Assembly: GCA_965202805.1 (NCBI GenBank) | Contig: OZ241869.1 | Location: 1,824,001 to 1,888,000, forward strand | DNA: 64,000 nucleotides | Direction: 5' to 3' | Source of the DNA: Longimicrobiales bacterium | GTDB taxonomy: Bacteria; Gemmatimonadota; Gemmatimonadetes; Longimicrobiales; Gaopeijiaceae | Shown: piece after piece, positions 23,156-46,243 of the stretch | Layout of the letters: the number at the start of each line of letters is the position of its first letter | How positions within the stretch are numbered: the first letter of the stretch is position 1 | Notes under the pieces: generated by a model | What the model was told of the DNA's origin: nothing | The model's input: the letters and a program-made list of their open reading frames with translations, nothing else | Databases searched by the model: none | Made by a program: the position numbers and the translations under genes

Positions 23156-24307
23156 ATGGAACGACCGAGGAAACTAACCGCGGGTTTCGTCAAGGCAGTC
23201 CGGCGGCCCGGCCGATACGGGGACGGACGCGGAGGCTTCGGGCTGTCGCTGCTGGTCAAGCCCACGTCGACCGGACGGATCAGCAAGACGTGGGCGCAGC
23301 GCCTCTACATCAACGGCAGGCCCGTGAACCTGGGGCTGGGGGCGTATCCGCTGGTGACGTTGAAGGAGGCGAGAGTCAAGGCGCTCGAGAACCGGCGCAC
23401 GCTGGAGCGGGGGATGGACCCCAGGAGCGACGGCACACCGACGTTCGCGCGAGCCGCCGAGAAGGTGATCGCGATCCACAGGGCGAACTGGAAGCCGGGC
23501 AGCGACACCGAGCAGCAGTGGAGGCAGAGCCTGCGCGAGTACGTCTACCCGAAGATCGGGGACAAGACGGTGGACGAGATCACGACGACGGACGTGATGG
23601 CCATCCTGCTGCCGATCTGGAACGAGAAGCGGGTGACGGCGACGCGGGTGCGCAACAGGATTTCGGCGGTGATGAGGTGGGCCGTCGCGCAGGAGTACAG
23701 GGAGGGGAATCCGGCCGGCGACACCATCGCGGCCGCACTGCCCAGGAACGAGGTTCGAACGGTCCACCATCGCGCGCTGCCTCACACCCAGGTTGCGCGG
23801 GCGCTGGCGAGAGTGCGTGCGAGCACGTCGCAGCCCATGACCAAGCTGGCATTCGAGTTTCTCGTTCTGACCGCGTCCAGATCGGGCGAGGCCCGGAGTG
23901 CGAGATGGGCCGACATCGACGCCGGGGCCGCCACATGGACCGTGCCCGCCAAACACATGAAGACGGGACGCGAGCACCGGGTGCCGCTGTCCTCACGCGC
24001 GCTCGAAGTGCTCGCCCAGGCGCGCCATCGATGCAGGGGATCCGAGCTGGCGTTCCCCTCCCCGGCCGGCCGCAAGCTGACCGGCAACACGTTCTCCCTG
24101 CTCTGCCGGCGCCTTGAAATCGCCGCCGTTCCGCACGGCTTCCGTTCCTCGTTCCGCGACTGGTGCGCCGAGCGCGGCGTACCCCGCGAGGTCGCCGAAT
24201 CCGCGCTCGCGCACGCGGTCAAGGGCGTCGAGGGCGCTTACCTGCGATCCGATCTCTTCGAGCAACGGCGGGAGATCATGGAAGCATGGGCCGACTACGT
24301 GCGGTAA
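23156..24307 (+). CDS. Tyrosine recombinase/integrase (P4-like, with arm-binding domain)
   Basis: KLTA..PGRYGDG..GL.L.V N-terminus; catalytic LTASRSGE, MKT..HRVPLS, HGFRSSFRDW, LAH, AY.RSD. Appears intact. Confidence 0.92.
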   Translation: MERPRKLTAGFVKAVRRPGRYGDGRGGFGLSLLVKPTSTGRISKTWAQRLYINGRPVNLGLGAYPLVTLKEARVKALENRRTLERGMDPRSDGTPTFARAAEKVIAIHRANWKPGSDTEQQWRQSLREYVYPKIGDKTVDEITTTDVMAILLPIWNEKRVTATRVRNRISAVMRWAVAQEYREGNPAGDTIAAALPRNEVRTVHHRALPHTQVARALARVRASTSQPMTKLAFEFLVLTASRSGEARSARWADIDAGAATWTVPAKHMKTGREHRVPLSSRALEVLAQARHRCRGSELAFPSPAGRKLTGNTFSLLCRRLEIAAVPHGFRSSFRDWCAERGVPREVAESALAHAVKGVEGAYLRSDLFEQRREIMEAWADYVR

Positions 24308-24392: not shown

Positions 24393-27300
24393 ATGGTCGG
24401 TGCCGGTGAGTACATCCGGTCTTCGGCCGTGGTCGGCAACGTAGTTGCCGCGGACGCGATGATGAGCGGCGGCGACGGTCAGCCCGAGACGCTGGCGGGC
24501 GTGACGGTCACGCTCGGCGGCGAGCACGCCATGGGCGAGACCATGGAGACCGACATGAGCGGCGGCTTCGCCTTCACCGGGCTCCGCGCCGGCACCTACA
24601 CGGTCACCATCTCGGACTTCCCGGAGGACGTCTCCTTCGAGGAAGTGAGCCTCGAGATCTCGGTCGAGGTGGGCGAGGTCGGCCAGGCCGACTTCACGGG
24701 CCACTTCATCCGCACGTCCGCGGTCGAGGGCCAGGTGATCATCGAGGGCGAGGGCCTTGCCGGGGTGACGGTCACCCTGAACGGCGGGCCGGCCGACGAG
24801 AGCTACACGATGATGACCGACGCCGACGGCATGTACCGGTTCGAGGAACTGCGCCCCGGCGACTACACGGTCAGCATCAGCGACTTCGACACCCGCGACT
24901 ACGAGTTCGCGGCCACGTCCCAGGACGTGAGCGTGGACCTGGACGAGACCGGAACGGTGTCGTTCACCGGCGTCCTGCTCCGGACTTCGGGCATCGCCGG
25001 CCGGGTGAGCGTCGAAGGCATGGGCCTCGGCGGCATCGAGGTCACGCTGTCGGGCGGAGAGGAAGCCCAGACGGCGATGACCGACGACGGCGGCCAGTAC
25101 AACTTCGCGGGCCTGGCGGCTGGCGACTACACGGTCTCGATCGCGGTCGAGAGCGACGCCTACGTGTTCGAGTCGATGAGCTCGGACGTGACGGTCGGTG
25201 ACGACGAGTCGAAGATCGTCAACTTCGAGGGCATGCACGCGAGGACCGCGAGCGTGTCCGGCATGGTGTTCCTCGACGAGGCGACCAAGAACGACATGCA
25301 CGACGAGGGCGAGCATCCTCTGGCGCACGCCGGCATTCCGGTGGCGCTGGTGGGCCCGGGCGTCAACGAGCAGCGGCTGGGCGCGACCGACGCGACCGGC
25401 GCCTTCTCGTTCTCGGGTCTCCGCTCCGGCCCGTACCAGCTGGTCGTCCTCATCGACGCCACGGTGGCGGCTGCACTCGCGGCCAACGACGTGGCGTACG
25501 GCGGACCGGCGACCGGCTACGAGATCGCTCTCGGTGTCGGCGAGGCCGCATCGCAGGGGATTCCGTTCGACATCACGCACACGACCGTGAACTTCACGGT
25601 GATGCTGAGGCATGGCGACGACATGGGTGCGGCGGTTCCCGGCGCCAGCGTCACGCTCTACTCCGACGCGGACGGCGAGAACAAGGTCGGCAGCGGCGAC
25701 ACCGGCGACGACGGCTCCGTGGCGATCAAGGTCGCGCGTGGCTACACCAGCGGGAACATGGTGCACGCGGGCGTGTCCGCAGACGGTTACACCGGCGAAG
25801 GCATGACGGCCGTGTCGTGGGATCCGCAGATGTTCGCAACCGCGGCCTCCAACAGCCACGACCTCGTCAACCTGAGCGTCGACGCGACGGTCAGCGGCGC
25901 GACGGTCGAGACCGAGTACGGTGGCGGCAAGGCACTCGGCGGCTGGGCGATGAGCGTCATGTCCGGCGACGATGCGGTTGATGGCGCACCCGAGATGCTG
26001 GACGACGAGGGCAACGCGGCGTTCATGACCACCGTCGGAGCCGACGACCTGCCCGCGACCTACACCTTCGCGGTCGCCGACGACCAGGACGACAAGCTGG
26101 ACGGCGGCGAGAAGTACGCCGGGACCTCGGTCGAGTACACGCACACCGGTCTCGCGCTGGCGGGCACGATGGACGCCGGCACGATGGAGGTGGCGTACAC
26201 GACCCAGACCCTAAAGGTCTACGTGCACCACGAGCGCGACCAGGTGATGGGCTACACCGGCAACATCCTGGGCGGTGACGCGAGGGACGATGGCCAAGTC
26301 TCCGTCAGCATCCGCTACATCGATGGCAACGGCCGCTCCCGTGCGTTCGCGACTGCGGACAAGATCTCGAGCCCGGACAACAACGGTAGCAAGGGTGTCT
26401 GGACCTTCAGCAACGTTCCGGCCGACAGGAAAGTCATCGTGCAGGCGGAAGCGGCTACGGGCGTGGAGAACATCAAGCTCCTCGATCCCGACGAGCTCGC
26501 GGCGTACACGATGATGGACGTCAACGGCATCACGGGCGGCGCCTTCGGCGAGATGGGCGGCTTCAACCACACGGTCGAGCTCTGCCCGCTGCAGGCCACC
26601 ACGCCCCAGGACCACGACGAGTGCGCATCGTTCGCCTACGTGACCACGTACACCGTGAGCGGGCAGGTGTGGAAGAACACCGTCAAGATGAAGGGCGACG
26701 ACTTCGACACCGGTGATGACGACGATGGCATCACCACGTTCGTACCCGGGCAGACGGTCAGCCTGTCGCCGGTCGAAGGCGAGAACCTCGCCGGTGAGGA
26801 AGAGTCCCACACCACGACGGAGAAGGCGGTCAAGGGACCGGGTGAGACCTCCAAGGGGAATGAGGTACTCGACGAGACGCACCAGTTCAACTTCGGCGCG
26901 GTGGCCGCGGGCGTTTACGAGCTCAGCGTTCCGTCCGGATGGCGGGCGAAGATGGGCGACATGGATGCCACGGACGATGTCGACGACGCGTTCGACCCGC
27001 TCGAGGGCGAAGTCACGCTCGACGTTACGCCGGCGACGGCTACCCTGTTCGGACGCGTGGACGGCACCGACGGCTTCCCGCTCGACAGCGTGACCGTGAC
27101 CGTGAACGGCCTGTCGGCCATGACCGACGCGTCCGGTCGCTACATCATCGACGGCATCGCTCCGGCGACGCGCAAGATCGGCAGCGCGACGCACAGGAAC
27201 AGCATCTTCGTGGAGGCCTCCCGCAAGGGCTACACCGTCGCAAAACTCGATCCCATCACTTTTGGCACGGGAGCCGAGACCAAAGCGAACAAGACGACGA

Positions 27301-28751
27301 GGCAGGACATCGACCTGGCGGGCGTCCAGTCACGTGCCACGTTCAGCGGCAAGGTCATTGCTTCCAACGGCGGCGCACCGATCGCCGGCGTGGAAATCCT
27401 GGTGGACGATGAGGCACCGCTCAACGCGGCGACGAGCGGCGCGAACAAGGGCAAGCTCGTGACGGGCGCCGACGGCACCTTCACGGCGGAGGCCAAGGCC
27501 AAGACACTGGGCGATATCGCCAACGTGTCGGCGCAGAAGGACGGTTGGACCTTCGTACCCGCCGCGTACCCGGCCGCGGCCCACCCCGGAGCGGAGACGG
27601 CGAGCATCACCTTCTCCGGCTTCGTGAACGCCACGATTATGGGCAGAGTGGCCGCTCCGGGCGGCGGACCCATAAGCGGTGTCATCGTCACGGCGACGCC
27701 GGCAGCCGGCGGCGATGTCGCGGATGCCGACACCACGGGCGTGACGGGAAGCTTCTCGCTCAGCGTGTCGGGGGTCGGCGGCAGCTACAATCTGGCAGCC
27801 ACGCTGGCGAACCACACCTTCGAGCTCCCATCTCAGTACCGACAGGTGGTCAACGTCGCTCCGGGCCAGACCGTGAACATCGGCACCATCCAGGCGATGA
27901 CGTTCGCAGCCAGCGGCGTCGGCGCGTCGCGGTTGCGTGTGCTAGACGATGAGGACACCGACGACGACGAATCCGATCCCTCGCGGTACGTCTCCGCCGG
28001 CGGCGCTGGCAACGTCAGGGTGGCTTGGAAGGCGGGCACCGTGCCTGACGGACACATCGTCAGCTACCAGGCCCAGACCAAGGTCGGCGATGGTAACTGG
28101 GCGGACTTTGGCACCGCTGTCACGTCGGACGCCTTGGCGGGGGCTTCGCCCACAGACTCGACGGCAAGGCGCGGGGATGCCCCAGCCGCCAGCGATGGCG
28201 GGTTCATGGTTCGCGTCGTGTCCACCAGCGACAACGGCACGGCTGGAGACACGACCGACGATCCCGACGCGATCAACAGTGCTGAGGTTGACGTTGCGGC
28301 GATCGATCCGTCGGCCAGCGGTGTGAAGGCGAGGCGTCAGGCGGCAGCAGACTCAGACGAGGGGGCTGCGACCGGCGACTTCATCCAGGCCAGCTGGACC
28401 GCCGTGACGAGTGATGACTCCGACTTCCGGGTCGTTGCCCAGGTCACGCCCGCCGTTCTGCAAGGAAGCACGGTGTGGGTGGTCTTGGTGGCTCCGACTA
28501 CCGGCACTGGCACGGAAAGAGAGCTTGTCTCGGCTGAGATCGACGACACTTACTCCACGGCCCTGACTGTGGCTGAGCCCTCCGGCACGGGGACTCAGAC
28601 GGTCACCGTCACCGCAGCCGACCTCAGAAAGGCCATCAAGGTCGCTGTCGAGTCGGTGCAGGGTACCGCGGATGCCACGGATGACGGCCCGAAGTGGAAG
28701 CGCTCCGGGGCAGTTGATCTCGATGCGAGGGAGGAGTCCAGCGGCAGCTAA
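24393..28751 (+). CDS. 5'-truncated paralog (probable silent cassette) of the large Ig-like/carboxypeptidase-regulatory-like repeat surface lipoprotein
   Basis: From 24402 it is colinear with 38959-43251 (minus strand) but lacks the signal peptide, lipobox and first domain. Nearly identical N-terminal part, divergent C-terminal part. Confidence 0.8.
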   Translation: MVGAGEYIRSSAVVGNVVAADAMMSGGDGQPETLAGVTVTLGGEHAMGETMETDMSGGFAFTGLRAGTYTVTISDFPEDVSFEEVSLEISVEVGEVGQADFTGHFIRTSAVEGQVIIEGEGLAGVTVTLNGGPADESYTMMTDADGMYRFEELRPGDYTVSISDFDTRDYEFAATSQDVSVDLDETGTVSFTGVLLRTSGIAGRVSVEGMGLGGIEVTLSGGEEAQTAMTDDGGQYNFAGLAAGDYTVSIAVESDAYVFESMSSDVTVGDDESKIVNFEGMHARTASVSGMVFLDEATKNDMHDEGEHPLAHAGIPVALVGPGVNEQRLGATDATGAFSFSGLRSGPYQLVVLIDATVAAALAANDVAYGGPATGYEIALGVGEAASQGIPFDITHTTVNFTVMLRHGDDMGAAVPGASVTLYSDADGENKVGSGDTGDDGSVAIKVARGYTSGNMVHAGVSADGYTGEGMTAVSWDPQMFATAASNSHDLVNLSVDATVSGATVETEYGGGKALGGWAMSVMSGDDAVDGAPEMLDDEGNAAFMTTVGADDLPATYTFAVADDQDDKLDGGEKYAGTSVEYTHTGLALAGTMDAGTMEVAYTTQTLKVYVHHERDQVMGYTGNILGGDARDDGQVSVSIRYIDGNGRSRAFATADKISSPDNNGSKGVWTFSNVPADRKVIVQAEAATGVENIKLLDPDELAAYTMMDVNGITGGAFGEMGGFNHTVELCPLQATTPQDHDECASFAYVTTYTVSGQVWKNTVKMKGDDFDTGDDDDGITTFVPGQTVSLSPVEGENLAGEEESHTTTEKAVKGPGETSKGNEVLDETHQFNFGAVAAGVYELSVPSGWRAKMGDMDATDDVDDAFDPLEGEVTLDVTPATATLFGRVDGTDGFPLDSVTVTVNGLSAMTDASGRYIIDGIAPATRKIGSATHRNSIFVEASRKGYTVAKLDPITFGTGAETKANKTTRQDIDLAGVQSRATFSGKVIASNGGAPIAGVEILVDDEAPLNAATSGANKGKLVTGADGTFTAEAKAKTLGDIANVSAQKDGWTFVPAAYPAAAHPGAETASITFSGFVNATIMGRVAAPGGGPISGVIVTATPAAGGDVADADTTGVTGSFSLSVSGVGGSYNLAATLANHTFELPSQYRQVVNVAPGQTVNIGTIQAMTFAASGVGASRLRVLDDEDTDDDESDPSRYVSAGGAGNVRVAWKAGTVPDGHIVSYQAQTKVGDGNWADFGTAVTSDALAGASPTDSTARRGDAPAASDGGFMVRVVSTSDNGTAGDTTDDPDAINSAEVDVAAIDPSASGVKARRQAAADSDEGAATGDFIQASWTAVTSDDSDFRVVAQVTPAVLQGSTVWVVLVAPTTGTGTERELVSAEIDDTYSTALTVAEPSGTGTQTVTVTAADLRKAIKVAVESVQGTADATDDGPKWKRSGAVDLDAREESSGS
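24402..24442 (+). repeat. 41-bp perfect inverted repeat, left copy (candidate recombination site)
   Basis: GCCGGTGAGTACATCCGGTCTTCGGCCGTGGTCGGCAACGT is the reverse complement of 43211-43251. Confidence 0.85.
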
Positions 28752-28764
28752 CAACCCTTCAACC

Positions 28765-34516: not shown

Positions 34517-37500
34517 CTACCGCAATCTGATCCGTCCGCGGACACCCACCGAGTGCTGCGCCCCAGCGGGACCGCTCTCGCGCCGCGTGCCCTCAAGGCG
34601 CAGCCCGACGCCCGCGCCGAGGTCGTAGCGCACGCCGCTTGAGAAGGCGCGCGCCCCGCCCCCGGCGAGGTGGAAGCCGCCGTAGGGCGTCCCCTGGAAG
34701 CCGGCGATGCCGTAGGCCACCTCGCCGTCCACGCTGGGGCCCGTGCCCAGGCCGTGGCCGCCCATCGCGTCGGAGACCCCGCGCTCCCAAAGCTGGTCCA
34801 CCCCACTCCTGTGGTCGCCGTATGAAGGTGCCACCCGGATCGAGAGTCCCTCGCCCCGGGCCGCCGGGTCGAGCATGAGCGTGCCGCCGAAGCCCCACTC
34901 CTCGTAGCCTTCGCGCGAAGAGAGGACGAAGCGGCCGCGGCCCTCCGCGGTCACGCCCAGGCGGGAGTTCGTGTAGCGGAGTCCGCCCCCGACTTCCGCG
35001 CCGGCGCCGTTCACACCGTCGCCGTTGTCGTATCGCATCCCGCCCTCGAGCACGACTGCGAGTTCGTGCCCGGTGTCGGTGCGGAAGCCCTGCGTCAACT
35101 CCAGGGCGAGCTTGCCGCGCTGCATGTCGAGCGTGACCGCCTCAATCTGCGCGCCGCCGTCGACCTTGACCCGGCTGTACCAGCCCTCGGCCTTGATGCG
35201 GATGCCACGCGCGCCGCTGTCGAGTAACTGGTAGCCGGCGCCTCCCGCTCCCGTCAGCATGCTGGCCGGGCTGGTGCGGAGTCCCTCGCGCACGTCGTCG
35301 ACCTCGATTTCGCCCCGGCCGAGACCGGCCGAGCCCCACACCGAGGTGCCGCGCGCGTCGGAGAACCACGCCAGGTAGGGATGCACGCCGGTCATGGTGG
35401 CGCCATAGGTGCCCCTCACCGGGCTGGCGCCGGTCTTGTCGGTGAAGTCGAAGCCGCCGGAGGAGTACGAGCCCGCGACACCCGCCAGGATGTCCGGTCC
35501 CACCCGCACGTCCACGCCGGCGTGGGCGCTCACCATGTTGCCCTTCCAGTCGAGGGCGCTCGCGCCGGGCTCGCCGAGGTGGTGATACTCGCCGCCGCCC
35601 CAACTCGCCAGTTGCGTGCCGGTGGACGACTGCTGCTGCGCGCCCGACGCCCGGAACGGCATCTGGAAGGAGGTGCCGCCGAAGAGCGCGGCCAGTCCGG
35701 CTTGATCGCCTTGGGCGAGGCCCAGCCCGCCCGCGCCCGGCGCCGACAGGCTCGCGGCCATCGACGAGAGTCCGTTCGTCTCCACGCGCCGCTCCATCCC
35801 CATCCCGCTGGCTACCACGTCCACCCGGCGGGCGATCGCCGAGACCGTGCTCGACGTCATCGCGGCCGCCACGTGCGGCAGGACGCTCGTGTTCAGCCGC
35901 CCCGCGCGCTGGACGGGGTCGTCCGTGGCCGCCGAAGCGCTCCCCGACGGCGCGCCGGTGCCCGCCCGGTTGATCGCCGAGACCCGGTAGTGGCGCACGC
36001 TCCCCGGCTGCAGGCCGGTGTGCGAGAAGGCGGTGACCGTGGACTGGGTGTTGGTCTCCAGGTCGACCCAGGCGGCGCCCGTCTCCGAGACCTCGATGCG
36101 GTAACCCGTGATGCGCGCGCCGCCGTTGTAGGCGGGCGCGACCCAGAACAGGTCGATCTGCGTGGGCGTGACGTCGTTGGCCATGAGCCCGGTGGGCGCG
36201 TCGGGCACGGTGGCGTCCGTGGTCGAGCCCGCGACCCGCGACGCATTGCCCACGCCGATCCGGTTGATCGCCGAGACGCGGTAGTGCCTCGTCGAGGCCG
36301 GCTCGAGCCCGCCGTGCGTGTAAATGGTGGCCGGGGTGCGCGTGTTGGCCACCAGGTCCTCCCAGCTCCTGCCCCCGTCGGCCGACACCTCGATGCGGTA
36401 GCCGGTGATGCGCGCACCCCCGTCGTCCGAGGGCGCCTGCCAGGAGAGGCCGATCTGCGAGGTGCCGACCGCGTCGGCGCTGAGACGCCGCGGCACCCCC
36501 GGAAGGGTCGCCTCGGTGGTCGCCCGCGCCGTGTTCGAGAACTGCCCCACCCCCGCCAGGTTGATCGCCGCGACCCGGTAGTGCCGCGTGGTCGCGGGCC
36601 GGAGGTTGACGTCGGAGAACGTCGTCGTCCTCGCGTTCGTGTTGCGGCGGATGATGTTCCAGGTGCCGCCCCCGTCGTCGGAGGCCTCGATGCGGTAGCC
36701 GATGATCGAGACGCCGCCGGTGTAGCGGGGCGCGTTCCACGCCAGATCGATGCGCGCCGTGCCCACCGCCTGGGCCGTCAGCCCGGTCGGGACCCCGGCG
36801 AAGTCGGCGTGCGTAAGGGCCGTCGCCGGGAGCGCCGGGGGCATCGGCGACCATGCCCCTTCGCCCACGCGGTTTATGGCCCGAACCCGGTAACTGTACC
36901 GGGTCACCGGCTTGAGCCCGGTGTGCGTGAAGGTCCTCGTCGTCGTCCCCGTGTTACGCTCGAGATCGATCCACGAGTTGTCGTTGGGCCCTTGCACCTG
37001 GATGCCGTAGCCGGTGACGCGCTCCCCGCCATCGTTCTCCGGCGGGTCCCAGGCGAGGAGGATGCTTTTCGGTCCGGTCGCGCGCGCACGCACGTTCTGC
37101 GGCGGCCCGGGCGGCGCCGCGGTGGTCATCGCGTTGCGCACGCTGGATGGAGGTCCCGTCCCCTGGCTGTTGACCGCGGACACGCGATAGAACCAGGTGG
37201 TCGCGGGTCTGAGGCGGGTGTCGAGGTAGGTGGTGGTCGTGCTGTTGGTGCTGGGCACCAGGATGATCCAGCCCGTGTTGCCGTTGGGGGACCTCTCGAT
37301 GCGGTAGCCGGTGATGGCGCTCCCGCCGTTGTCGGACGGAGCCGACCATGTGAGGAGGAGCTGGCCGCTTCCCCTCAAGCCGCTCGGGGTCACCCTGAGC
37401 CCCGTCGGCCGGCTCGGAACGGTGACCTCGGTGGTGGCCCGGGCGGTGTTCGACCAATCGCTGTGGCCCGCCCGGGTGATGGCCCTGACCCGGTAGTGGC

Positions 37501-38803
37501 GGGTGGTGCCGGCACTCAGGTCGCGGTGGGTGTAGGTGGTGGACGTGGTGTTGGCCACGCGCACGCTCCAAGGGTCGTTTCCCGTGAGCGACGACTCGAT
37601 GCGGTAGCCGGTGATCGGCGACGAGCCCCTGGTCGAGGGGGCGCTCCAGCTCAGCTCGATGGCCGACGTCCCCCTGGCCCGCGCCGTCAATCGCCGGGGA
37701 GCGCTGGGCAGCACATGCTGCGTGGTGGCGTCGGCCACGTTGGACGGGTCTCCCACCCCATTGAAGTTGATCGCCGAAACCCTGTAGTGGCGCGTCTCGC
37801 CCCCGGAGAGACCCGTGTGGCTGTAGCTGGTGTCGGTGTTCCGGGTATTGCGCACCAGATTGGACCAGGTGGTGCCGGCATTCGTCGACACCTCGATCAG
37901 GTACCCGGTGATCCTGGCGCCGCCGTCCGAGCTCGGCGGATCCCACTCCAGGTCGATCGTGTCGGTGCCGACGGCCTCCGCCGTGAGGTTGCGCGGCTCG
38001 CCGGGGACTCCGGTGCGCGTCGTCCCGGTGAGGTTCCGCGCCACGCGGTCGAAGCGGAGCGCGAGATTGCCGACCGCGTCCCTGGCCGCGTTGTCGCCGC
38101 CGGCGCCGTAGAACACGCTCACCTCGTCGCCCCGCTCGACGGGGCCCTCCAAGAGCAGAAATATTTCGTCCGCCGACAGCTCGACCTCGGATACCCGCCT
38201 GGTGTGGAACGTGCCGCTCCGGATGAAGGACACGGAGAAGTCGCTGGCCGACGGGACGAAGTCGTCATCGAGGTCTTCGTCGAAGACGACGACGACCTCT
38301 TCGCCGTTGACCTTCACCTCGTCCACCTCCGGGGCCTTGTTGTCAACGCGGAAGTCGTGTGTCCTGGCTCTGCTCTCTTCGCCTCGCCTGTTCTCTGCCG
38401 CGCCCGCAGGGATGGTGACGATTACCGTGCGGTCATAGTCCGGATCCGTGATGAGGTGGAGCGCGTAGTTCGAGCAATAGTCCGCGTCGCAGTCCTCCAG
38501 GACATCCTTGGTGGCGCCGAAGACCTCGATCTCCCCGATCGTGAGACCGGTCACGGCCTGCGAGAAACCGATGTTGATGCGGATTTCCTCGTGCACGGAC
38601 CCCGTGAAGGTATGCGAAAGCCTGACCGTGGGGGCGACTGCCGCGCGCGCTGCAGCAACTCCCGCGGCGGACCGGACTCCCTCATCCCAGCCATCCGCGG
38701 ACGGCTCCTGAGCGCGCGCGCGCGTCGGTGGAACCAGGAACGCGCAGATCGCTGCGGCAGCCAGAATGGGACGAACGGGTACGCCAGGCTGATTCGGAGT
38801 CAT
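34517..38803 (-). CDS. Fibronectin type III repeat protein with autotransporter-like beta-barrel, copy 2
   Basis: Inverted paralog of 28898-33199; divergent N-terminus, near-identical C-terminal half. Confidence 0.88.
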   Translation of the reverse strand: MTPNQPGVPVRPILAAAAICAFLVPPTRARAQEPSADGWDEGVRSAAGVAAARAAVAPTVRLSHTFTGSVHEEIRINIGFSQAVTGLTIGEIEVFGATKDVLEDCDADYCSNYALHLITDPDYDRTVIVTIPAGAAENRRGEESRARTHDFRVDNKAPEVDEVKVNGEEVVVVFDEDLDDDFVPSASDFSVSFIRSGTFHTRRVSEVELSADEIFLLLEGPVERGDEVSVFYGAGGDNAARDAVGNLALRFDRVARNLTGTTRTGVPGEPRNLTAEAVGTDTIDLEWDPPSSDGGARITGYLIEVSTNAGTTWSNLVRNTRNTDTSYSHTGLSGGETRHYRVSAINFNGVGDPSNVADATTQHVLPSAPRRLTARARGTSAIELSWSAPSTRGSSPITGYRIESSLTGNDPWSVRVANTTSTTYTHRDLSAGTTRHYRVRAITRAGHSDWSNTARATTEVTVPSRPTGLRVTPSGLRGSGQLLLTWSAPSDNGGSAITGYRIERSPNGNTGWIILVPSTNSTTTTYLDTRLRPATTWFYRVSAVNSQGTGPPSSVRNAMTTAAPPGPPQNVRARATGPKSILLAWDPPENDGGERVTGYGIQVQGPNDNSWIDLERNTGTTTRTFTHTGLKPVTRYSYRVRAINRVGEGAWSPMPPALPATALTHADFAGVPTGLTAQAVGTARIDLAWNAPRYTGGVSIIGYRIEASDDGGGTWNIIRRNTNARTTTFSDVNLRPATTRHYRVAAINLAGVGQFSNTARATTEATLPGVPRRLSADAVGTSQIGLSWQAPSDDGGARITGYRIEVSADGGRSWEDLVANTRTPATIYTHGGLEPASTRHYRVSAINRIGVGNASRVAGSTTDATVPDAPTGLMANDVTPTQIDLFWVAPAYNGGARITGYRIEVSETGAAWVDLETNTQSTVTAFSHTGLQPGSVRHYRVSAINRAGTGAPSGSASAATDDPVQRAGRLNTSVLPHVAAAMTSSTVSAIARRVDVVASGMGMERRVETNGLSSMAASLSAPGAGGLGLAQGDQAGLAALFGGTSFQMPFRASGAQQQSSTGTQLASWGGGEYHHLGEPGASALDWKGNMVSAHAGVDVRVGPDILAGVAGSYSSGGFDFTDKTGASPVRGTYGATMTGVHPYLAWFSDARGTSVWGSAGLGRGEIEVDDVREGLRTSPASMLTGAGGAGYQLLDSGARGIRIKAEGWYSRVKVDGGAQIEAVTLDMQRGKLALELTQGFRTDTGHELAVVLEGGMRYDNGDGVNGAGAEVGGGLRYTNSRLGVTAEGRGRFVLSSREGYEEWGFGGTLMLDPAARGEGLSIRVAPSYGDHRSGVDQLWERGVSDAMGGHGLGTGPSVDGEVAYGIAGFQGTPYGGFHLAGGGARAFSSGVRYDLGAGVGLRLEGTRRESGPAGAQHSVGVRGRIRLR

Positions 38804-38858: not shown

Positions 38859-38945
38859 TCACCCCCCGCCCGGAAGGTCCCGGACGGGGGGTGAGCCGTC
38901 CTGCGACCATCGGCCTGACCGGTGACGAGTCAGCCAGGCCGATGG
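38859..38945 (-). terminator. Conserved intergenic double hairpin, copy 2
   Basis: Homolog of 28765-28850 with compensatory stem changes. Confidence 0.6.
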
Positions 38946-38958
38946 TGTTGAAGGGTGA

Positions 38959-41900
38959 CTAGCTGCTTGCCGGGTCGGCGGCGACGTCCTTCGTCTCGGT
39001 CGCCTTCCAGACTTCCTCGTCGTCGTCGTCGACCTCTTCGGCCTGTCGCGTCTCGACACGGACCTTGAGCGCCTTCCGGAGGTCGGCCTCAGTCACGTTC
39101 AGCTCCTGAGTGCTGCCCGCGATGGTCCAGTCTGCTGCCGTGAAGCCACTAACGACGAGCACCGCGCTCGTCGCATCGGTGCCGCCAGCAGTCAAAGCAA
39201 GCTCGGCTGCGTCTTCGGCGATGAGCGACTGCGTTCCGGCCGCTCCCATATCGAGCGTGATGACGACTCGCGTAGCGGTTCTGGAGTTCGTCGAGACTTC
39301 CCAGTTGACGATGAGGCTGTCGGCAGTCGCACCTGCTTGAGTATCACGCACTGCAGTGATCTTGCTGGGCGATGCGTCGACCCGAGCAACGGACCTCATG
39401 CCAGAGTTGCCCGTGCGCGTCTCGGTGCTGGCGTCCGCCAGTGTCTCGGTCGCCGAGACGCTGACCCGGACGCTGAAGCCGAGGTCGCCCTCGTTGCTGT
39501 CCGGGGCAGTGAACGTACCTACCCTGACGCCCTCAGTCACATTGTCTTCGGTGTCGGCGCTGCCATCGGGCGCGAAGGACCCGTCCGTCCAGGTGGCACC
39601 GGCTTCGCCGCAATCCGCAACGCAATGCTCGACTGTGTGCGTGATGGCGCTGAAGCCGGAAACATCGGCATCGAACTGCCAGCGGATGTTGACCGCCCCG
39701 GTGTAGTTGCCGGTGGTTGCGTCCTTCACCCGCGACGTGGTGATGCTCCTGGCGTTGACGCTCACTCCGGTGATGTTGCCGAAGTTCACGGTTTGACCGG
39801 GAGCAACACGGACATCTTGCTCGTCGTCGGGATAGCTGAAGCGCGTGAGGCTGGTCGCCGGCGCCGCGGCTGTGATCGTGTAGCGGTCGTACGGCACGCT
39901 GAGCGAGAAGCTTCCCGTTCTGCCGGTCGTGGCGGTAGCCGTCGCCTCAGCGCCTTCTACGCCCGCCTCCGTCGCCGTGACGGTAACGCCGCTCATCGGC
40001 CCGCCACCCGGACGAACCACTCTACCGCTGATCGTGGCGTTCACGAAGCCGGTGAAGTTGAAGCCCGAGACGGCCGAACCGGCGTGCGCGGGAATGTCAT
40101 CGATCTCATCAGGCACGAAGGACATGCCATCCTTCGAGACCCTGAGCCAGACTCCGTCGCCCCGGTCCTGGGCCTTGACCATCACCGTGTAGCTGCCGTC
40201 GGCGCCCGTCAGATGAATGTCGTTCTTCGTGGCGCCCTTCGACTTCGCGTTCTTGTTCTCCGGGGCCTCGTACTTGGTGCCATCGTAGCTCACCTCGACC
40301 TTCACGCCCGGAATCCCATCGCCGCTGCCGGAGGCAGTGACCCTACCGCTGATCGAGGCCGTCTCGGCCGCAGCCGTGAGCTTGAGGTCGTTGCCGTCAT
40401 CGTCCTCCACCTTCTTCACCGTGTTGGCTGCGAATGTGAGGGTCACGCTGGCCTTGCCGACGTCTGCGACCGAGGCCTCCACGAAGATGCCGGTCACCTT
40501 CTTCTTGCTGACGGTGCGCGTCTCCGACTTGATGCCCTCGATAATGAAGCGGCCATGCTGGTCGGTCATGGTCGACGCATTGTTCGCGGTCACGGTCGCG
40601 CTGTCCATGGCGAAGCCTTCATCGTCGACGATGAATCCGTAGACGGTCGCCGTGGCCGGTCTGACGGTGAGGTCGACAGGTCCCTCGATCGGTTCGAACA
40701 TGTCGTCGGCGTCTCCACCGTTCGCCTCCCACCCATCGGAGACGCTGAGCGAGTAGGCACCCGCCGCGACATCGGCGAAGGTGAACGCACTCATCGGGTT
40801 GTCGCCCTTGGTCTTGTCCGAACGGGTGTCCTTCTCCGTGGTAGTGAAGGACTCTTCCTCACCCGCCAGATTCTTGCCGTCGACCGGGCTCAGGCTGACC
40901 GTGACCCCTGCCTCGGTGTCTTCTTCCTCCACGGCCTTGAAGTCGTCGCCGTCATCCATTGCGACGGTTTGCTTCGTCACGGTCCCGCTCACCTCGTAAG
41001 TGGTCACGTAGGCGAACGACGCGCACTCGCCGTGATCCTGAGGCGCGGTAGCCTGCAGCGGGCAAAGCTCGACCGTGTGGTTGAAGCCGCCCATCGCACC
41101 GAAGGCGCCACCGGTGATGCCGTTGACGTCCATCCCCGTGTATGCCGCGAGCTCGTCGGGCTCGAGGAGTTTGATGTTCGTGTCATCGGCAACCTTGCTC
41201 GCCTGGACGATGACGTTCTCGTCGGCGGGCACGTTGCTGAAGGTGTGCACGCCTTTGCTGTTGCTGCTCTCGATGCTGTCCGCGGCCACGAACGCACGGG
41301 AGCGCCCGCTACCGTCGATGTAGCGGATGCCGACATCGACCATGCGGTCGTCACCGCTGCCGTCCCTCTCGTCGCCATCCAGGAGATTGCCGGTATAGCC
41401 CATCACCTGGTCGCGCTCGTGGTGCACGTAGACCTTGAGGGTCTGGGTCGTGTACTGCACCTCCATCGTGCCGGCGTCAACGGTGCCCGCCAGCTTGAGA
41501 CCGGTGTGCGTGAGCTCGACCGAGCCCGGATCGTAGTCCTCGCCGCCGTCCAGCTTGTTGTCCTGGTCGTCGGCGACCGCGAAGGTGTAGGTCGCGGGCA
41601 GGTCGGCGGCCGTCACGGTCGTCTTGAACGCCGCGTTGCCCTCGTCGTCCAGCTTGTCGGGCGCGCCATCAACCGCATCATCGCCGGACATGACGCTCAT
41701 CGCCCAGCCCTTCAGCGCCTTGCCTCCACCGTAGTCGGTGGTGATCGTCGCGCCGCTGACCGTCGCGTCGACGCTCAGGTTGACGAGGTCGTGGCCGTTG
41801 GAGCCCGCGGTTGCGAACATCTGCGGATCCCACGACACGGCCGTCATGCCGTCGCCGCTGTAGTCCTCGTGGGAGACGCTCGCGTGAACCATGTTCCCGC

Positions 41901-43596
41901 TGGTGCCGGCGCGCGCGACCTTGATCGCCACCGAGCCGTCGTCGCCGGTCTCACCGCTGCCGACCTTGGTCTTGTCATCCCCAGCCGAGTCGTAGAGCGT
42001 GACGGACGCGCCGGAAACCGCAGCGCCGGTGTCGTCGCCGTGCTTCAGCATCACCGTGAAGTTCACGGTCGTGTGCGTGATGTCGAACGGAATCCCCTGC
42101 GAAGCGGCCTCGCCGACTCCGAGAGCGATCTCGTAGCCGGTCGCCGGTCCGCCGTACGCCACGTCGTTGGCCGCGAGTGCCGCCGCCACCGTGGCGTCGA
42201 TGAGGACGACCAGCTGGTACGGGCCGGAACGCAGACCCGAGAACGAGAAGGCGCCGGTCGCGTCGGTCGCGCCCAGCCGCTGCTCGTTGACGCCCGGGCC
42301 CACCAGCGCCACCGGAATGCCGGCGTGCGCCAGAGGATGCTCGCCCTCGTCGTGCATGTCGTTCTTGGTCGCCTCGTCGAGGAACACCATTCCCGACACG
42401 CTCGCGGTGCGCGCGTGCATGCCCTCGAAGTTCACGATCGCCGACTCGTCGTCGCCGACCGTCACGTCCGTGCTCATCGACTCGAACACGTAGGCGTCGC
42501 TCTCGACGGAAATCGAGACCGTGTAGTCGCCGGCCGCCAGGCCCGCGAAGTTGTACTGGCCGCCGTCGTCGGTCGTCGCCATCTGGGCCTCCTCTCCGCC
42601 CGACAGCGTGACCTCGATGCCGCCGAGGCCCATGCCTTCGACGCTCACCCGGCCGGCGATGCCCGAAGTCCGGAGCAGGACGCCGGTGAACGACACCGTT
42701 CCGGTCTCGTCCAGATCCACGCTCACGTCCTGCGACGTGGACGCGAACTCGTAGTCGCGGGTGTCGAAGTCGGAGATCGAGACCGTGTAGGAGCCGGGGC
42801 GCAGTTCCTCGAACCGGTACATGCCGTCGGCGTCGGTCATCATCGTGTAGCTCTCGTCGGCGGGACCGCCGGAGAGCGTCACGGTGACGCCCGCAAGGCC
42901 CTCGCCCTCGATGATCACCTGACCCTCGACCGCGGAGGTGCGGATAAAGTGTCCCGTAAAGTCGGCCTGGCCGACCTCGCCCACCTCGACAGAGATCTCG
43001 AGGCTTACTTCCTCGAAAGAGACGTCCTCGGGGAAGTCCGAGATAGTGACCGTATAGGTGCCGGCGCGGAGCCCGGTGAAGGCAAAGCCGCCGCTCATGT
43101 CGGTCTCCATGGTCTCGCCCATGGCGTGCTCGCCGCCGAGCGTGACTGTAACGCCCGCCAGCGTTTCGGGCTGGCCGTCGCCGCCGCTCATCATCGCGTC
43201 GGCCGCTACCACGTTGCCGACCACGGCCGAAGACCGGATGTACTCACCGGCGAAGTTGAGTTGCACGTTCTGACCATCGGTCGCGATGGTCGCGGACTGC
43301 GTCACCTGGGCGAACGTCGCGTCCTCGGGGAAGCCGCTGATTGTGACCGTGTAGGTCCCGGCTTCCACGCCCGAGAAAGCGAAGCTGCCACCCGACCCCG
43401 TCGTCGTGGTCGCACCCGACGACAGAGTGGCGGTGATGCCGCTGGCGGCCGTCCCTTCAATCGTCACCGTCCCGGAGATGGTCCCCACGGGAGTCGGCGG
43501 CGGGGGCGGCTCCACAGGCGGCGGAGTGCCCTCGTCGCAGGCGGTGAAGGTCAGGGCCATCAGCGTTGCTGTGGCGAGGAGCTTGAGTCGGTTCAT
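38959..43596 (-). CDS. Large acidic surface lipoprotein with carboxypeptidase-regulatory-like/SdrD-B-like Ig repeats (full-length copy)
   Basis: RBS AGGAGG, lipoprotein signal MNRLKLLATATLMALTFTA-C, Pro linker, repeated G.Y.F.GL..G.YTVTIS domains. Confidence 0.88.
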   Translation of the reverse strand: MNRLKLLATATLMALTFTACDEGTPPPVEPPPPPTPVGTISGTVTIEGTAASGITATLSSGATTTTGSGGSFAFSGVEAGTYTVTISGFPEDATFAQVTQSATIATDGQNVQLNFAGEYIRSSAVVGNVVAADAMMSGGDGQPETLAGVTVTLGGEHAMGETMETDMSGGFAFTGLRAGTYTVTISDFPEDVSFEEVSLEISVEVGEVGQADFTGHFIRTSAVEGQVIIEGEGLAGVTVTLSGGPADESYTMMTDADGMYRFEELRPGSYTVSISDFDTRDYEFASTSQDVSVDLDETGTVSFTGVLLRTSGIAGRVSVEGMGLGGIEVTLSGGEEAQMATTDDGGQYNFAGLAAGDYTVSISVESDAYVFESMSTDVTVGDDESAIVNFEGMHARTASVSGMVFLDEATKNDMHDEGEHPLAHAGIPVALVGPGVNEQRLGATDATGAFSFSGLRSGPYQLVVLIDATVAAALAANDVAYGGPATGYEIALGVGEAASQGIPFDITHTTVNFTVMLKHGDDTGAAVSGASVTLYDSAGDDKTKVGSGETGDDGSVAIKVARAGTSGNMVHASVSHEDYSGDGMTAVSWDPQMFATAGSNGHDLVNLSVDATVSGATITTDYGGGKALKGWAMSVMSGDDAVDGAPDKLDDEGNAAFKTTVTAADLPATYTFAVADDQDNKLDGGEDYDPGSVELTHTGLKLAGTVDAGTMEVQYTTQTLKVYVHHERDQVMGYTGNLLDGDERDGSGDDRMVDVGIRYIDGSGRSRAFVAADSIESSNSKGVHTFSNVPADENVIVQASKVADDTNIKLLEPDELAAYTGMDVNGITGGAFGAMGGFNHTVELCPLQATAPQDHGECASFAYVTTYEVSGTVTKQTVAMDDGDDFKAVEEEDTEAGVTVSLSPVDGKNLAGEEESFTTTEKDTRSDKTKGDNPMSAFTFADVAAGAYSLSVSDGWEANGGDADDMFEPIEGPVDLTVRPATATVYGFIVDDEGFAMDSATVTANNASTMTDQHGRFIIEGIKSETRTVSKKKVTGIFVEASVADVGKASVTLTFAANTVKKVEDDDGNDLKLTAAAETASISGRVTASGSGDGIPGVKVEVSYDGTKYEAPENKNAKSKGATKNDIHLTGADGSYTVMVKAQDRGDGVWLRVSKDGMSFVPDEIDDIPAHAGSAVSGFNFTGFVNATISGRVVRPGGGPMSGVTVTATEAGVEGAEATATATTGRTGSFSLSVPYDRYTITAAAPATSLTRFSYPDDEQDVRVAPGQTVNFGNITGVSVNARSITTSRVKDATTGNYTGAVNIRWQFDADVSGFSAITHTVEHCVADCGEAGATWTDGSFAPDGSADTEDNVTEGVRVGTFTAPDSNEGDLGFSVRVSVSATETLADASTETRTGNSGMRSVARVDASPSKITAVRDTQAGATADSLIVNWEVSTNSRTATRVVITLDMGAAGTQSLIAEDAAELALTAGGTDATSAVLVVSGFTAADWTIAGSTQELNVTEADLRKALKVRVETRQAEEVDDDDEEVWKATETKDVAADPASS
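43211..43251 (-). repeat. 41-bp perfect inverted repeat, right copy (inside the full-length lipoprotein gene)
   Basis: Reverse complement of 24402-24442. Confidence 0.85.
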
Positions 43597-44055
43597 GGAA
43601 CCTCCTGAGTGGTGGAAATGAAATGCCGGCCTGCAAAGGCTGGACGAAGAGTCGCGTGCCCCTGGATAAGCAAAGGTGGTGCCAACTTCGGAACCTTCAT
43701 GTTTGACAACCAGTTACGGACTATCACACCCCCGTGTGGAATCCGGTGAAACCTGCAAATCCTCGGATTGTCGAGGGCGACCTCTGTTTTCTGATTGCGA
43801 CATAAACGATAAAGTGTTACCGATATCGCCAAAATATCAGAAATATATCCCTCCCGTCACTGGAACTCCCGCCTTGCGACATACGACGTTTTCGATAATC
43901 TTAACTCCAAAATTGACTGTGGGGCGATTCGCCCCCGCTCCAAATTGACAAGATCGCCGATCATGCCATACTGATATAATAAGGCTCACCATGGGGGCAC
44001 GCGAACCGGGCACCGCCGGTTCGGCCCCGCGTCTCGTCACTCCAGAATCGCACCG
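43597..44055. promoter_or_regulatory. AT-rich divergent promoter region
   Basis: Clear GC drop between divergent genes; TTGACA at 43945-43950 and TATAAT at 43975-43980, with non-canonical spacing. Confidence 0.55.
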
Positions 44056-44919
44056 ATGAAATCGAAAGAACCGGCCTACATGATGTATTGCAGGGACCTC
44101 GAGGTTCGAGCCGCGCTGGAGCGCGCGTTCACCGCTTACCCGGTCCGGCGAGTGCGTTCGCGAAAGGCACTCGAGACGCCGCCCGCGAACATCCGCGTGA
44201 CGGTATTCGCAACCGAGACGTGCACCGAGCGCGAAGTCCGGTGGCTGCTGTCGATGTTCGGGCTTCTGAGTCCGCCATGCATCGTGGCGACGGGCCTCTC
44301 CCTGGACTGCATGCGGCGAATGCACTCACTCGCCTCCGCCAGGCTGAAGGTGGTGTGGGCCTCCGATGTCAGAGACCGCCTCAAGCCGGTCCTGGATGGC
44401 CTCTGGATGCAGAATTGGAGTCCGATGGGGCGTTTCGGCCTGGGACTGCTGGACGAGCTCAAGCCGATGAGGGACTTCCTCAGGAAGACGATCCGCATTG
44501 CGTGCGGCCTGCACGTCGGTCCCACCCTCCCTCCCTTCTTCCCGAGAACGACCGTCAGAAGGCTGGCGGCCGAGGTCGGCGTCGCCACATCGACGCTTCG
44601 GCTCTGCTGGAGGGAGGAAGTTCCGCTCCGGTGCAACCTGAAGGGCCTCCTGGGCTGGTCCCTCGTCCTCTGGGGCACGCGCGAACGCACGTCCCTGGAC
44701 TGGGCTGCCATCGCCGGAAAGCTGCGGATGCCGCGCCGCACGCTGGAGAGAAACTTCATTCGGACGGCCGGATGCACGCTCGGCGAGGCGGCCGACGATC
44801 CGGAACGAGTCGACAGGCGATTCGCCGAGTGGGTCGATTCCGTGTGGGATCCCGATGCCGTCCGCAGGCCCGGCGCCGGGAACATTGTGGCGCAGGAACC
44901 CACCGAGGAGCTGCGCTGA
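44056..44919 (+). CDS. Putative transcriptional regulator with tandem AraC-like HTH motifs
   Basis: TVRRLAAEVGVATSTLR and WAAIAGKLRMPRRTLERNF..TAG. Confidence 0.55.
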   Translation: MKSKEPAYMMYCRDLEVRAALERAFTAYPVRRVRSRKALETPPANIRVTVFATETCTEREVRWLLSMFGLLSPPCIVATGLSLDCMRRMHSLASARLKVVWASDVRDRLKPVLDGLWMQNWSPMGRFGLGLLDELKPMRDFLRKTIRIACGLHVGPTLPPFFPRTTVRRLAAEVGVATSTLRLCWREEVPLRCNLKGLLGWSLVLWGTRERTSLDWAAIAGKLRMPRRTLERNFIRTAGCTLGEAADDPERVDRRFAEWVDSVWDPDAVRRPGAGNIVAQEPTEELR

Positions 44920-44921: not shown

Positions 44922-45962
44922 GTGGCCGGATCGACTTCCCGGCGCTACGTCGGCTGGCGCTGCAGGCTCTACCCGAGTCCCTCACAGGACGCGGCGCTCG
45001 CCCGGTGCCGGAACGCCCTGCGCGAGCTGTCCAACACGCTCCTCGTCAACTCGCAGCTCAGCTACAGCGAGACCGGACGGCGGCTGACCAAGGCCGAACT
45101 GCACAAGCTCATCCGGGACTGGCGCGCCGGAGGGGCGAGCCAGGGGTGCCCGGCCAGCGCCATGTACCGCGTGGCCGCCGATCTCCACGTGGCCTTCCGC
45201 AACTGGTTCAAAAGGCAGGGCAGACGCGGGCGAAAGGGGTTCCCCCAGCTCAAGAGCATGGGCCGCGAGCCCGGCATCTACCTCAGCAACCAGGGCATCC
45301 GCTTCGACGGCAACCGGGTGTGGCTGCCGAAGTACGGCTGGGTGCGCTGGAAGGGCGGGAAACTGCCCCCGGGGAGATTGCCGGGCCCCGCCGGACGCAA
45401 GACCCTCGGCCTGCTCTCCGGGCGCGTCTGGCTGGATGCGGGGAACCGGTGGATGCTCTCGTGCCTGTTCGAGTGCGCGCCGCTCACGCCCTCCAGGGCG
45501 AGCACGGACAGGGCCGAGGTCCGGCAGCGGGGCCGCGAAATCACGGTGTCGGTCGACGGGGAATCGGTCCGCGTGATCCGCGAGAACAGGGCGCTCCGCA
45601 ACGCCAGACGCCGCCTGGCGAGGCTCGAGCGGCGGCTGGAGCGGTGCGAATTCGGTTCCGAGGGCCGAAAGCGCACCCTGGCCCTCATGCGCAACCAGGC
45701 GCGCAAGGTCCGGAACCACCAGGCGGATCTGCAGCACAAGGCCACGACGGGCGTCGTGCACGAGGCCCGCGAGATCGAAGTCGAAGGCGCGAGCTCGGAA
45801 CTGCTGCGCCAGCTCGAATACAAGGCGGAGTGGTACGGCCGCCGACTGAAGGTACGGCGAGGCCCGCCGAAACCGGGGACGGGCAATCCCCGACGCGCGC
45901 GGAGACCGGGGAGCCGGTCGCAGAAACGCGAATCGCGGACGCGAAGGCCGAAAGCTCTGTAG
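44922..45962 (+). CDS. TnpB-like protein with inactivated and truncated RuvC (TldR-like)
   Basis: GTG start 2 bp after the AraC-like stop, RBS GAGGAG. TnpB motifs RLYPS..Q, AFRNWF, GFPQLK, LPKYGWVR, HKATT, LRQLEYKAEWYG. No GIDLG (RuvC-I), no Zn finger, no RuvC-III. Confidence 0.8.
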   Translation: MAGSTSRRYVGWRCRLYPSPSQDAALARCRNALRELSNTLLVNSQLSYSETGRRLTKAELHKLIRDWRAGGASQGCPASAMYRVAADLHVAFRNWFKRQGRRGRKGFPQLKSMGREPGIYLSNQGIRFDGNRVWLPKYGWVRWKGGKLPPGRLPGPAGRKTLGLLSGRVWLDAGNRWMLSCLFECAPLTPSRASTDRAEVRQRGREITVSVDGESVRVIRENRALRNARRRLARLERRLERCEFGSEGRKRTLALMRNQARKVRNHQADLQHKATTGVVHEAREIEVEGASSELLRQLEYKAEWYGRRLKVRRGPPKPGTGNPRRARRPGSRSQKRESRTRRPKAL

Positions 45963-46000
45963 CCGTCTGCGAAGGCCGGAACGAATCAGGGACGACGTCA
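45870..46000 (+). ncRNA. Putative omega-RNA-like guide scaffold at the TnpB 3' end (boundaries approximate)
   Basis: Hairpins GGGGA..TCCCC, GACCGG..CCGGTC, GCGGACG..CGTCTGC, and an ACGCGCGCGGAGA..GAAACGCGAATC pattern recalled from tnpB 3' ends. Confidence 0.45.
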
Positions 46001-46243
46001 GGCGCCGCGGCGTCGTGGACCTCCCGTCGCTCGGCGGCGGCCGTCCACGATCTTCCCGGTCGCGCGATGCTGTGCGATCAAGCGCGTGAGTTGGGCGCGA
46101 GAGAACTCCGTGCCCTCCCGGAGCGTCTTCTTGATCTGCGACTTCTCCTTCTTGCGGAGACCATGGTAGCCGGTCTCGTCGAGAAGCTCCGCGATGAACT
46201 GGTACTGCGCGTCCCTGGTCCCGTCGCTCGGCGTCTCGTTCAA
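45998..46243 (-). CDS. Small HTH protein resembling the N-terminus of an integrase-core transposase
   Basis: Y.FIAELL...GY..LRKKEK..FSRAQLTRLIAQHRATGKI; start overlaps the bactofilin stop. Confidence 0.5.
   Translation of the reverse strand: MNETPSDGTRDAQYQFIAELLDETGYHGLRKKEKSQIKKTLREGTEFSRAQLTRLIAQHRATGKIVDGRRRATGGPRRRGA

Follow-up and report, generated by a model that had tools for sequence, protein, structure and literature searches.

A TldR-type nuclease-dead TnpB whose guide matches a distant lipoprotein paralog: a candidate RNA-guided switch between surface-lipoprotein operons in a Longimicrobiales bacterium

The locus described here, which lies in a 64,000-nucleotide stretch of a Longimicrobiales genome (the window; the genome is G000 below), raises the question of whether a TnpB-like gene without its transposase is the relic of an insertion sequence, or has been put to use as an RNA-guided repressor of the TldR type. 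A TldR is recognised by its TnpB fold and homology, by loss of at least two of the RuvC D-E-D residues, by a guide-RNA scaffold retained at the 3' end, by a guide that matches a conserved, TAM-flanked 5' site, and by lack of tnpA together with a stable link to non-transposon genes. The gene in question and its upstream neighbour are as follows.

44922..45962, plus strand: nuclease-dead TnpB (TldR-type), 346 aa, GTG start (profile, fold, alignment)
44056..44919, plus strand: regulator-like gene, 287 aa, with a receiver-like (beta-alpha)5 N-terminus and a helical HTH/AraC-like C-terminus (weak family and fold matches)

The reading frame at 44922-45962 (plus strand) is uninterrupted, with no internal stops, and profile and fold agree on what it encodes: the NCBIfam guided_TnpB profile matches at E 1.8e-23 and 83 bits, below its cut-off of 100, the Pfam OrfB_IS605 and HTH_OrfB matches are weak, and the AlphaFold model (pLDDT 81) has the ISDra2 TnpB complex 8h1j as its top Foldseek match (E 3.8e-23, TM 0.75, 25% identity). 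The DNA-binding lobes are intact in this model; the basic tail, residues 315-346, is disordered and coincides with the RNA scaffold described below, such that the last ~35 residues read through it. The nuclease site, by contrast with the intact D-E-D triad and zinc finger of active IS200/IS605 TnpBs, is dead: the RuvC-I Asp is replaced by R201 or Q202, depending on the alignment (about 45522-45527), 19 residues are missing after IEVEGA, and both the zinc finger and RuvC-III are absent. The preliminary description had reported a stop-free frame reading AEVRQR at the RuvC-I catalytic position, deleted after IEVE, lacking zinc finger and RuvC-III and without a neighbouring tnpA; all of this is borne out, and no tnpA lies near 44922-45962. 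Its expectation that profile and structural comparison would confirm loss of the whole triad needs amending, in that both Asp residues are gone but the RuvC-II Glu is kept, as E288 (45783-45785).

The same pattern of loss runs through the family. A protein search with the dead TnpB gave 303 matches, 78 of them 49-96% identical; in an alignment of these with the query, which includes some partial proteins, 0/79 have Asp at RuvC-I or RuvC-III and 0/79 have a CxxC in the last 120 residues, and the RuvC-II Glu is present in 68. The gene occurs in 16 of 41 related genomes, namely G000 and 15 of its 18 congeners (16/19 for the genus), with none in the 22 genomes outside the genus; these genomes are kin, so counts across them are not independent. 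Further copies, often several per genome, are 72-83% identical to the query, and a broader search found relatives in 10 of 151 genomes of the order, including 2 of 20 of a second genus. The named records among the close homologs are metagenome-assembled genomes labelled Longimicrobiales, Gemmatimonadetes, Ca. Palauibacter and, in some cases, Gammaproteobacteria; these labels, which are linked to sponges, and one RNA run suggest a sponge association for the strains concerned, which for G000 itself is at most a possibility.

The protein is conserved. For 14 sequences, all gap-free by choice (91 pairs), dN/dS is 0.28 (dN 0.115, dS 0.418; Nei-Gojobori, codons 10-305), which argues against plain decay of an insertion sequence; in the part of the gene that overlaps the RNA, dN and dS both fall to about 0.05. 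Protein identity among loci is 74-84%, against 93-98% DNA identity in the last 192 nt. Orthologs in the same gene order, looked for at the suggestion of the preliminary description, do exist, with the regulator-like gene upstream of the dead TnpB in 23 of 24 loci. No Y1 TnpA (PF01797) was found in any of the 19 genomes of the genus, in a search for which 6 of 14 control genomes were positive; hence the gene lacks tnpA, of the Y1 type searched, and is stably linked to non-transposon genes. In a 33-row tree, in which long branches were flagged and which has no published TldRs among its rows, zinc-finger-bearing dead relatives branch below two clades of truncated proteins, each with starred support: clade 1, that of the window gene, and clade 2, about 53% identical. 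The nearest protein with an intact triad, P0122, is 35% identical, and when it was taken as an active ancestor from which a TAM might be read, no match was found among metagenome contigs. A phage origin was considered and set aside, the best relatives in viral contigs being at most 31% identical. In one genome without Y1 TnpA (G017) there is a TnpB whose triad and zinc finger are both intact; its identity to the query is only ~30% (L197:6478-7704).

The 3' end of the gene carries two further features.

45851..45981, plus strand: guide-RNA scaffold, ending GCCGGAA and overlapping the end of the reading frame; 5' boundary approximate (alignment, covariance model, pair counts)
45982..45991, plus strand: guide CGAATCAGGG, conserved 10 nt (end of homology, target match)

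In 24 of 24 loci, DNA homology to the window breaks off at 45989-45995, preceded by 192 nt of 93-98% identity. A covariance model built from 17 scaffolds has 48 matches in 16 of the 19 genomes of the genus, one of them in G000. In the scaffold alignment 96.5% of cells are paired, against 24-38% with slid partners; covariation is thin, both sides changing in 3 of 26 pairs, so that a scaffold is retained with modest structural support. The earlier suggestion that 3' hairpins form a guide scaffold therefore stands in part: conservation and the covariance-model search speak for an RNA, but hairpin stability does not, since the folding energy of 45800-45989 compared with shuffles gives z -1.26, and no Rfam family reaches its gathering score. 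A metatranscriptome run (word share 0.05), consisting of contigs of other strains, gives a depth of 51-55 at 45577-46078 and of 8-13 across the remainder of the gene; this is no evidence of expression, because the peak lies on the most conserved part and collects other strains.

Across clades the scaffold ends in GCCGGAA and the letters that follow vary with the target, from which we place the scaffold at 45851-45981 and the guide at 45982-45991, and read TGAA, from sequence comparison, as probably the TAM of the dead TnpB; a guide start 3 nt earlier is also possible, because GAA is common to scaffold end and TAM. When 29 distinct clade-1 guides are compared with the target (their first five letters being fixed by the search pattern), positions 1-8 agree in 29/29, position 9 in 25/29 and position 10 in 26/29, with agreement dropping to 2/29 at position 11. 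The variable sequence after GAATCAG was tried as an alternative guide and dropped: its best match in G000, of 12 nt, was no better than chance would give, and the same held for the loci. An 81-aa reading frame ends 7 nt after the guide.

The guide has a single fitting target in the genome, outside the window.

G000:C1:3414457-3414470, minus strand: TGAA + guide target in the 5' UTR of the lipoprotein paralog starting at 3414492 (unique match)

The sequence GAACGAATCAGGG occurs exactly twice in G000, once here in the window and once in the leader of the paralog at C1:3414492; the full TGAA-CGAATCAGGG, that is TGAACGAATCAGGG, occurs once. In 20,000 trials with shuffled guides, a perfect site arose anywhere in the genome in 2%, or at ~7e-7 per given 150 nt. 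The target sits between a sigma54-like element at 3414377-3414391 and the ATG of the paralog. It lies about 55-68 nt downstream of where sigma54 transcription is predicted to begin, and 22 nt separate it from the ATG; the strand with which the guide would pair is the coding one, and the TAM-distal end faces the polymerase. Pattern and protein searches found 15 target sites in 14 genomes, each just upstream of a lipoprotein ATG and within a 16-nt invariant block, of which 12 core letters were fixed by the search pattern. This is a conserved 5' site flanked by a putative TAM. Of the 16 genomes that carry clade 1, 14 have it; none was found in the other two, G017 and G018 (fragmented; G018 has other genes at this place), or in any of the three genomes without a dead TnpB (G007, G009 and the 67% complete G015). 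In G007 the homologous leaders keep TGAA and differ in the seed. The targeted copy stands at the syntenic place in 10 of 14 loci, and among 47 distinct lipoprotein leaders the site is found in 14 and absent from 33, including all TnpB-adjacent copies; the leader of the adjacent gene in the window matches TAM plus guide in 9 of 14 positions at best. A variable block of the cassette promoter had been considered as target on the strength of scattered cross-genome likeness, and was dropped once the conserved leader match appeared. In G001 the targeted locus occurs twice, inverted and with identical leaders (C2:13002 and C2:54970; L168, L169). The near-complete genomes G007 and G009, which have no dead TnpB, show 46 and 24 lipoprotein matches, many of them full paralogs and none at the syntenic site; perhaps these represent another route to surface variation.

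The surroundings of the dead TnpB in the window include genes of the same kind as the target.

38959..43596, minus strand: divergent surface-lipoprotein gene, 1545 aa, CarboxypepD_reg/SdrD_B repeats (domains, paralog alignment)
43670..43684, minus strand: sigma54-like -24/-12 element of this gene (alignment of 18 promoter regions)
43711-43725: conserved block overlapping an IHF-like site (same alignment)
34517..38803, minus strand: fibronectin type III (fn3) repeat surface gene, following the lipoprotein gene (domains)
23156..24307, plus strand: tyrosine integrase, directly before a truncated lipoprotein copy (Pfam; same position in 7/8 other loci)
24393..28751, plus strand: truncated lipoprotein copy that lacks a signal peptide and starts at codon ~116 (homology)
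28847-33199: fn3 gene after the truncated copy (domains)

The lipoprotein at 38959..43596 (minus strand), whose signal peptide ends LTFTAC and whose own leader lacks the target, is 61% identical to the targeted paralog, which is also followed by a similar fn3 gene; over the first 299 residues the two full G000 copies are 98% identical. The elements at 43670..43684 and 43711-43725 were assigned by their likeness to the sigma54 -24/-12 and IHF consensus sequences. A divergent lipoprotein gene stands beside the dead TnpB in 15 of 24 loci, with lipoprotein/fn3 genes downstream in four more, and the guide matches the 5' UTR of the adjacent gene's paralog, the adjacent copy having no site; the proposed link to a variable surface-protein locus is in this way made specific. 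For the C-terminal part of the lipoprotein, the ESM Atlas offered leads below 0.9 only.

The truncated copy is inverted relative to 38959-43596, its homology beginning at 24402 against 43251, and the whole of 23156-33199 mirrors 34517-43596 in inverted orientation. Truncated copies from other genomes begin at about codon 116 in 8 of 8 cases, and 7 of the 8 lie directly behind an integrase of 80-89% identity. From this arrangement 23156-43596 is a possible invertible or cassette-exchange locus, and the integrase with its truncated copy may point to a second, recombination-based layer; a model of an integrative element was discarded, there being no left-end fusion in direct orientation near this integrase in G000. 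On the other side of the guide lie a bactofilin gene (45998-46803, minus strand), in which an 18-nt repeat near 46285-46330 varies in copy number (run X2), and a cadherin/Big_9 repeat surface gene (46837-51153, minus strand), whose end overlaps the remnant of a GAF-domain gene (47017-47560, plus strand); related loci have an intact GAF gene downstream of TnpB. Elsewhere, at G000:C1:2827836-2830698, 17 tRNA genes stand in an array, all on the same strand.

The regulator-like gene stands directly before the dead TnpB, its stop codon lying 2 nt before the TnpB GTG with the same spacing in 18 of 22 loci, and the coupling claimed by the preliminary description is in that respect sound, in 23 of 24 loci; the AraC likeness is weak, and the AraC-like partner is the weakest part of that interpretation. 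No HTH_18 or HTH_AraC match was found in the window protein, HTH_18 matches 6 of 13 homologs weakly (best E 0.003), and among the ESM Atlas neighbours HTH_18 occurs in 22% and 92% of members. The model (pLDDT 57) shows the receiver-like N-terminus at low confidence and has no Foldseek match below E 0.001. Identity among regulators is 44-57% where full homology is seen, with only the C-terminal half matching in 5 of the 24 loci that extend far enough, and clade-2 genes have no such partner. Two regulator paralogs (31-34% identity) stand beside a GAF gene, without a TnpB, at G000:C1:3921880-3926016.

Sister lineages carry different guides for the same gene family. Seven clade-2 genes (five distinct, in five genomes) each come last in a lipoprotein or lipoprotein-fn3 operon of their own, and their scaffolds end GCCGGAA-CCGACTCAA; of 52 distinct lipoprotein genes, 19 begin with the matching ATGAA-CCGACTCAA, on the strand opposite to the clade-1 target, such that the guide is sense to the mRNA. 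The lipoproteins of the clade-2 owners, where seen, start differently. In G001, G008 and G011 the syntenic copy mismatches the clade-2 seed and the clade-1 cassette copies match it, and so clade 2 may, on these matches, silence clade-1 cassettes. An orphan scaffold in G010 reads CAGACTTAA, and the target copy of the same genome reads ATGAA-CAGACTCAA; in the second genus, the guide of G093 agrees with three lipoprotein starts at 8 of 9 positions, with a mismatch at position 1, and the adjacent copy differs. At L357:2545-2585 scaffold end and guide are duplicated head to tail, like a two-unit array; the duplicated guide of G090 has no perfect site in its 240-contig assembly. Clade-3 guides were pursued and abandoned, since their five matches seem to fall within coding regions and not one is at a lipoprotein gene. 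Orphan guides of the TCGCTT type have no target inside the genomes that carry them; the pattern occurs in one of five genomes, G013, which shows no such guide, and it matches type-2 starts elsewhere.

Stand-alone scaffolds with other guides were seen at L188:18552-18922 (two in tandem), L196:6551-6695, L156 and L185:489-647, L101:1371-1450 and L008:1776-1875; they lie upstream of type-2 lipoprotein genes. Seven of the 52 distinct lipoprotein starts, otherwise long open frames, have TGA at codon 3 (L122, L161, L162, L168, L180, L010, L141), and others carry AAT, AGA, GGA or ACC changes at the same bases, which are those of the clade-2 guide seed. The TGA codons are unexplained; escape with readthrough, or R-loop mutagenesis, are the candidates.

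Synthesising these observations, which support the interpretation given in the preliminary description, we propose that the dead TnpB has been domesticated as an RNA-guided repressor of a resident lipoprotein operon, in the service of surface-isoform switching, a reading we regard as probable on the genomic patterns set out above. The cassette would comprise its own surface-lipoprotein operon, the regulator, which may play some part, and the dead TnpB with its RNA. Once transcribed, the scaffold (45851-45981) with its 10-nt guide would bring the protein to the TGAA-CGAATCAGGG site in the leader of the paralog; since the guide points at the front of the other lipoprotein copy, it probably switches that copy off, the bound complex lowering transcription of the resident lipoprotein-fn3 operon at the syntenic chromosomal site. 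The cassette copy, having a different leader, would escape and, with the resident operon lowered, its variant would be made and presumably displayed instead. Published TldRs work on the same principle, and a guide of 9 nt and a roadblock in the 5' UTR are among the features described for them (10.1101/2023.11.30.569447, 10.64898/2026.09.22.753285, PMC13418256).

One aspect sits awkwardly with this proposal. According to 10.1101/2023.11.30.569447, repression from a 5' UTR is efficient in one orientation only, opposite to that found here: the clade-1 target has the arrangement that is inefficient for published 5'-UTR targets, and clade 2 the efficient one. An orientation that is weak for a DNA roadblock is the right one for pairing with mRNA, and the complex, or the RNA alone, might act there, the clade-1 guide being antisense just upstream of the ribosome-binding region and altering translation or stability; counting the shared GAA lengthens the match to 13 nt, and an upstream GAAGG could also pair. 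We nonetheless judge this unlikely, as clade-2 guides cannot base-pair with the mRNA, whose sense they share, TGAA stands 5' of the target in both orientations, GAAGG is found also in scaffolds with other guides, and the DNA-binding lobes are intact in the model.

The near-identity of the first 299 residues in the two G000 copies (98% against 61% for the whole), and the start of all eight truncated copies at about one codon, seven of them behind an orthologous integrase, raise the alternative of a dead TnpB that directs recombination or gene conversion to the lipoprotein locus and, together with the tyrosine integrase, steers the exchange of surface-protein cassettes. We hold this to be quite improbable: some 350 nt separate the junction from the target, TnpB and integrase stand 20 kb apart here and do not adjoin in other loci, the target site is intact in 14 genomes, and tyrosine integrases need no RNA guide.

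Binding at the target might instead activate the operon or just tune it, one conceivable way being recruitment of the receiver-HTH protein to the sigma54 promoter; the 2-nt spacing of regulator and TnpB in 18 of 22 loci would suit such a role, as would a host that keeps the target invariant in 14 genomes rather than escaping it. The site is downstream of the promoter, though, the TnpB-adjacent copies avoid it, which fits self-protection from repression, clade-2 genes have no partner, and the N-terminus of the partner is unmatched in 5 of 24 loci, and we give this possibility very little credence. That the gene is a decaying IS200/IS605 remnant and the match an old insertion site, which would leave the same flank and agree with the existence of broken and duplicated copies (L021, L023), is hardly credible and already largely refuted by a dN/dS of 0.28, the lack of Y1 TnpA in 19 of 19 genomes, a 3' 192 nt more conserved than the gene and ending exactly where target complementarity ends, and sister clades with different guides for the same gene family.

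Our preferred reading, RNA-guided repression of the paralog, can be set beside the known systems. The csrA-TldRs (PMC13418256) are alike in being chromosomal, with several loci per genome, a linked second regulator gene, a linked surface-gene copy, guides that cross-target paralogs and a recombinase nearby; they are aimed at flagellin, occur in Clostridia and go with CsrA and Hin, whereas the target here is the operon of a 1,500-aa repeat lipoprotein behind a sigma54-like promoter, and the companions are a receiver-HTH gene and a tyrosine integrase. The fliCP-TldR (10.1101/2023.11.30.569447) likewise has a fixed guide against a resident paralog, a cassette copy that escapes, an eroded RuvC and zinc finger, and no tnpA; it is prophage-borne, with TAM GTTAT and a promoter target, in contrast to relatives of at most 31% identity in viral contigs, a predicted TAM of TGAA and a 5'-UTR target. 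With the oppF-TldR (10.64898/2026.09.22.753285) the locus shares a very short guide (about 10 nt, against 9 nt in the oppF system), a target past the start site and tuning among paralogs; that system, from Enterococcus and with TAM TTTAA, targets oppA in the TldR's own operon, whereas the paralog here is distant. ISDra2 TnpB (8h1j) is alike in fold (TM 0.75) and in having an RNA that overlaps the 3' end of its gene, and differs from the window protein in being an active nuclease, its triad and zinc finger unbroken, and in having a TnpA.

None of the fliC, csrA or opp associations occurs at the window locus, the neighbours being receiver-HTH, lipoprotein and fn3 genes. The literature searched, with subscription papers mostly outside its scope, yielded nothing on a TldR in a Gemmatimonad, a TldR with AraC or a TnpB with a TTGAA TAM, and Gemmatimonad, Longimicrob, Palauibacter and AraC are absent from the searched supplementary files of 10.1101/2023.11.30.569447; its TldR list has further rows, which may therefore bear on novelty. 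The switching logic is already known from csrA-TldRs. What appears new, in that none of it was found in the literature searched, is the target class, the phylum, the partner, the predicted TAM and the re-aimed sister lineages, and the preliminary view that an association with a surface-protein locus was undescribed is upheld to the same extent. The best reading of these genomes is thus an as yet undescribed TldR-type lineage that would silence one surface-lipoprotein operon in favour of another.

More tentatively, and with the balance of our expectation against it, we speculate that the whole is a layered surface-variation system acting on a non-flagellar lipoprotein, in which successive dead-TnpB lineages with re-aimed guides, together with stand-alone or tandem guide RNAs, silence rival operons while their own escape, and the integrase exchanges the C-terminal part at codon 116; the clade-2 seed changes, including a CGA-to-TGA stop within genes that are intact in other respects, would then be the footprint of an intragenomic RNA-guided arms race or of R-loop mutagenesis, and clade 1 would repress in the supposedly ineffective orientation. 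If that were true, clade-1 repression in this orientation would imply another mechanism at sigma54 operons.

It appears that this is a fourth natural setting for TldRs, and one in which guide, target and escape alleles can be read from genomes; RNA-guided isoform switching would be extended from flagella and transporters to large surface lipoproteins. The dead TnpB itself is a candidate for a compact binder of 346 aa, its TAM predicted to be TGAA and its guide 10 nt long, and the several guide-target pairs within one lineage, along with stepwise decay of the nuclease, offer a natural series for the study of re-aiming. Finally, the bacteria concerned seem to be host-associated, and the system may be a means, open to testing, by which uncultured symbionts vary their surface.
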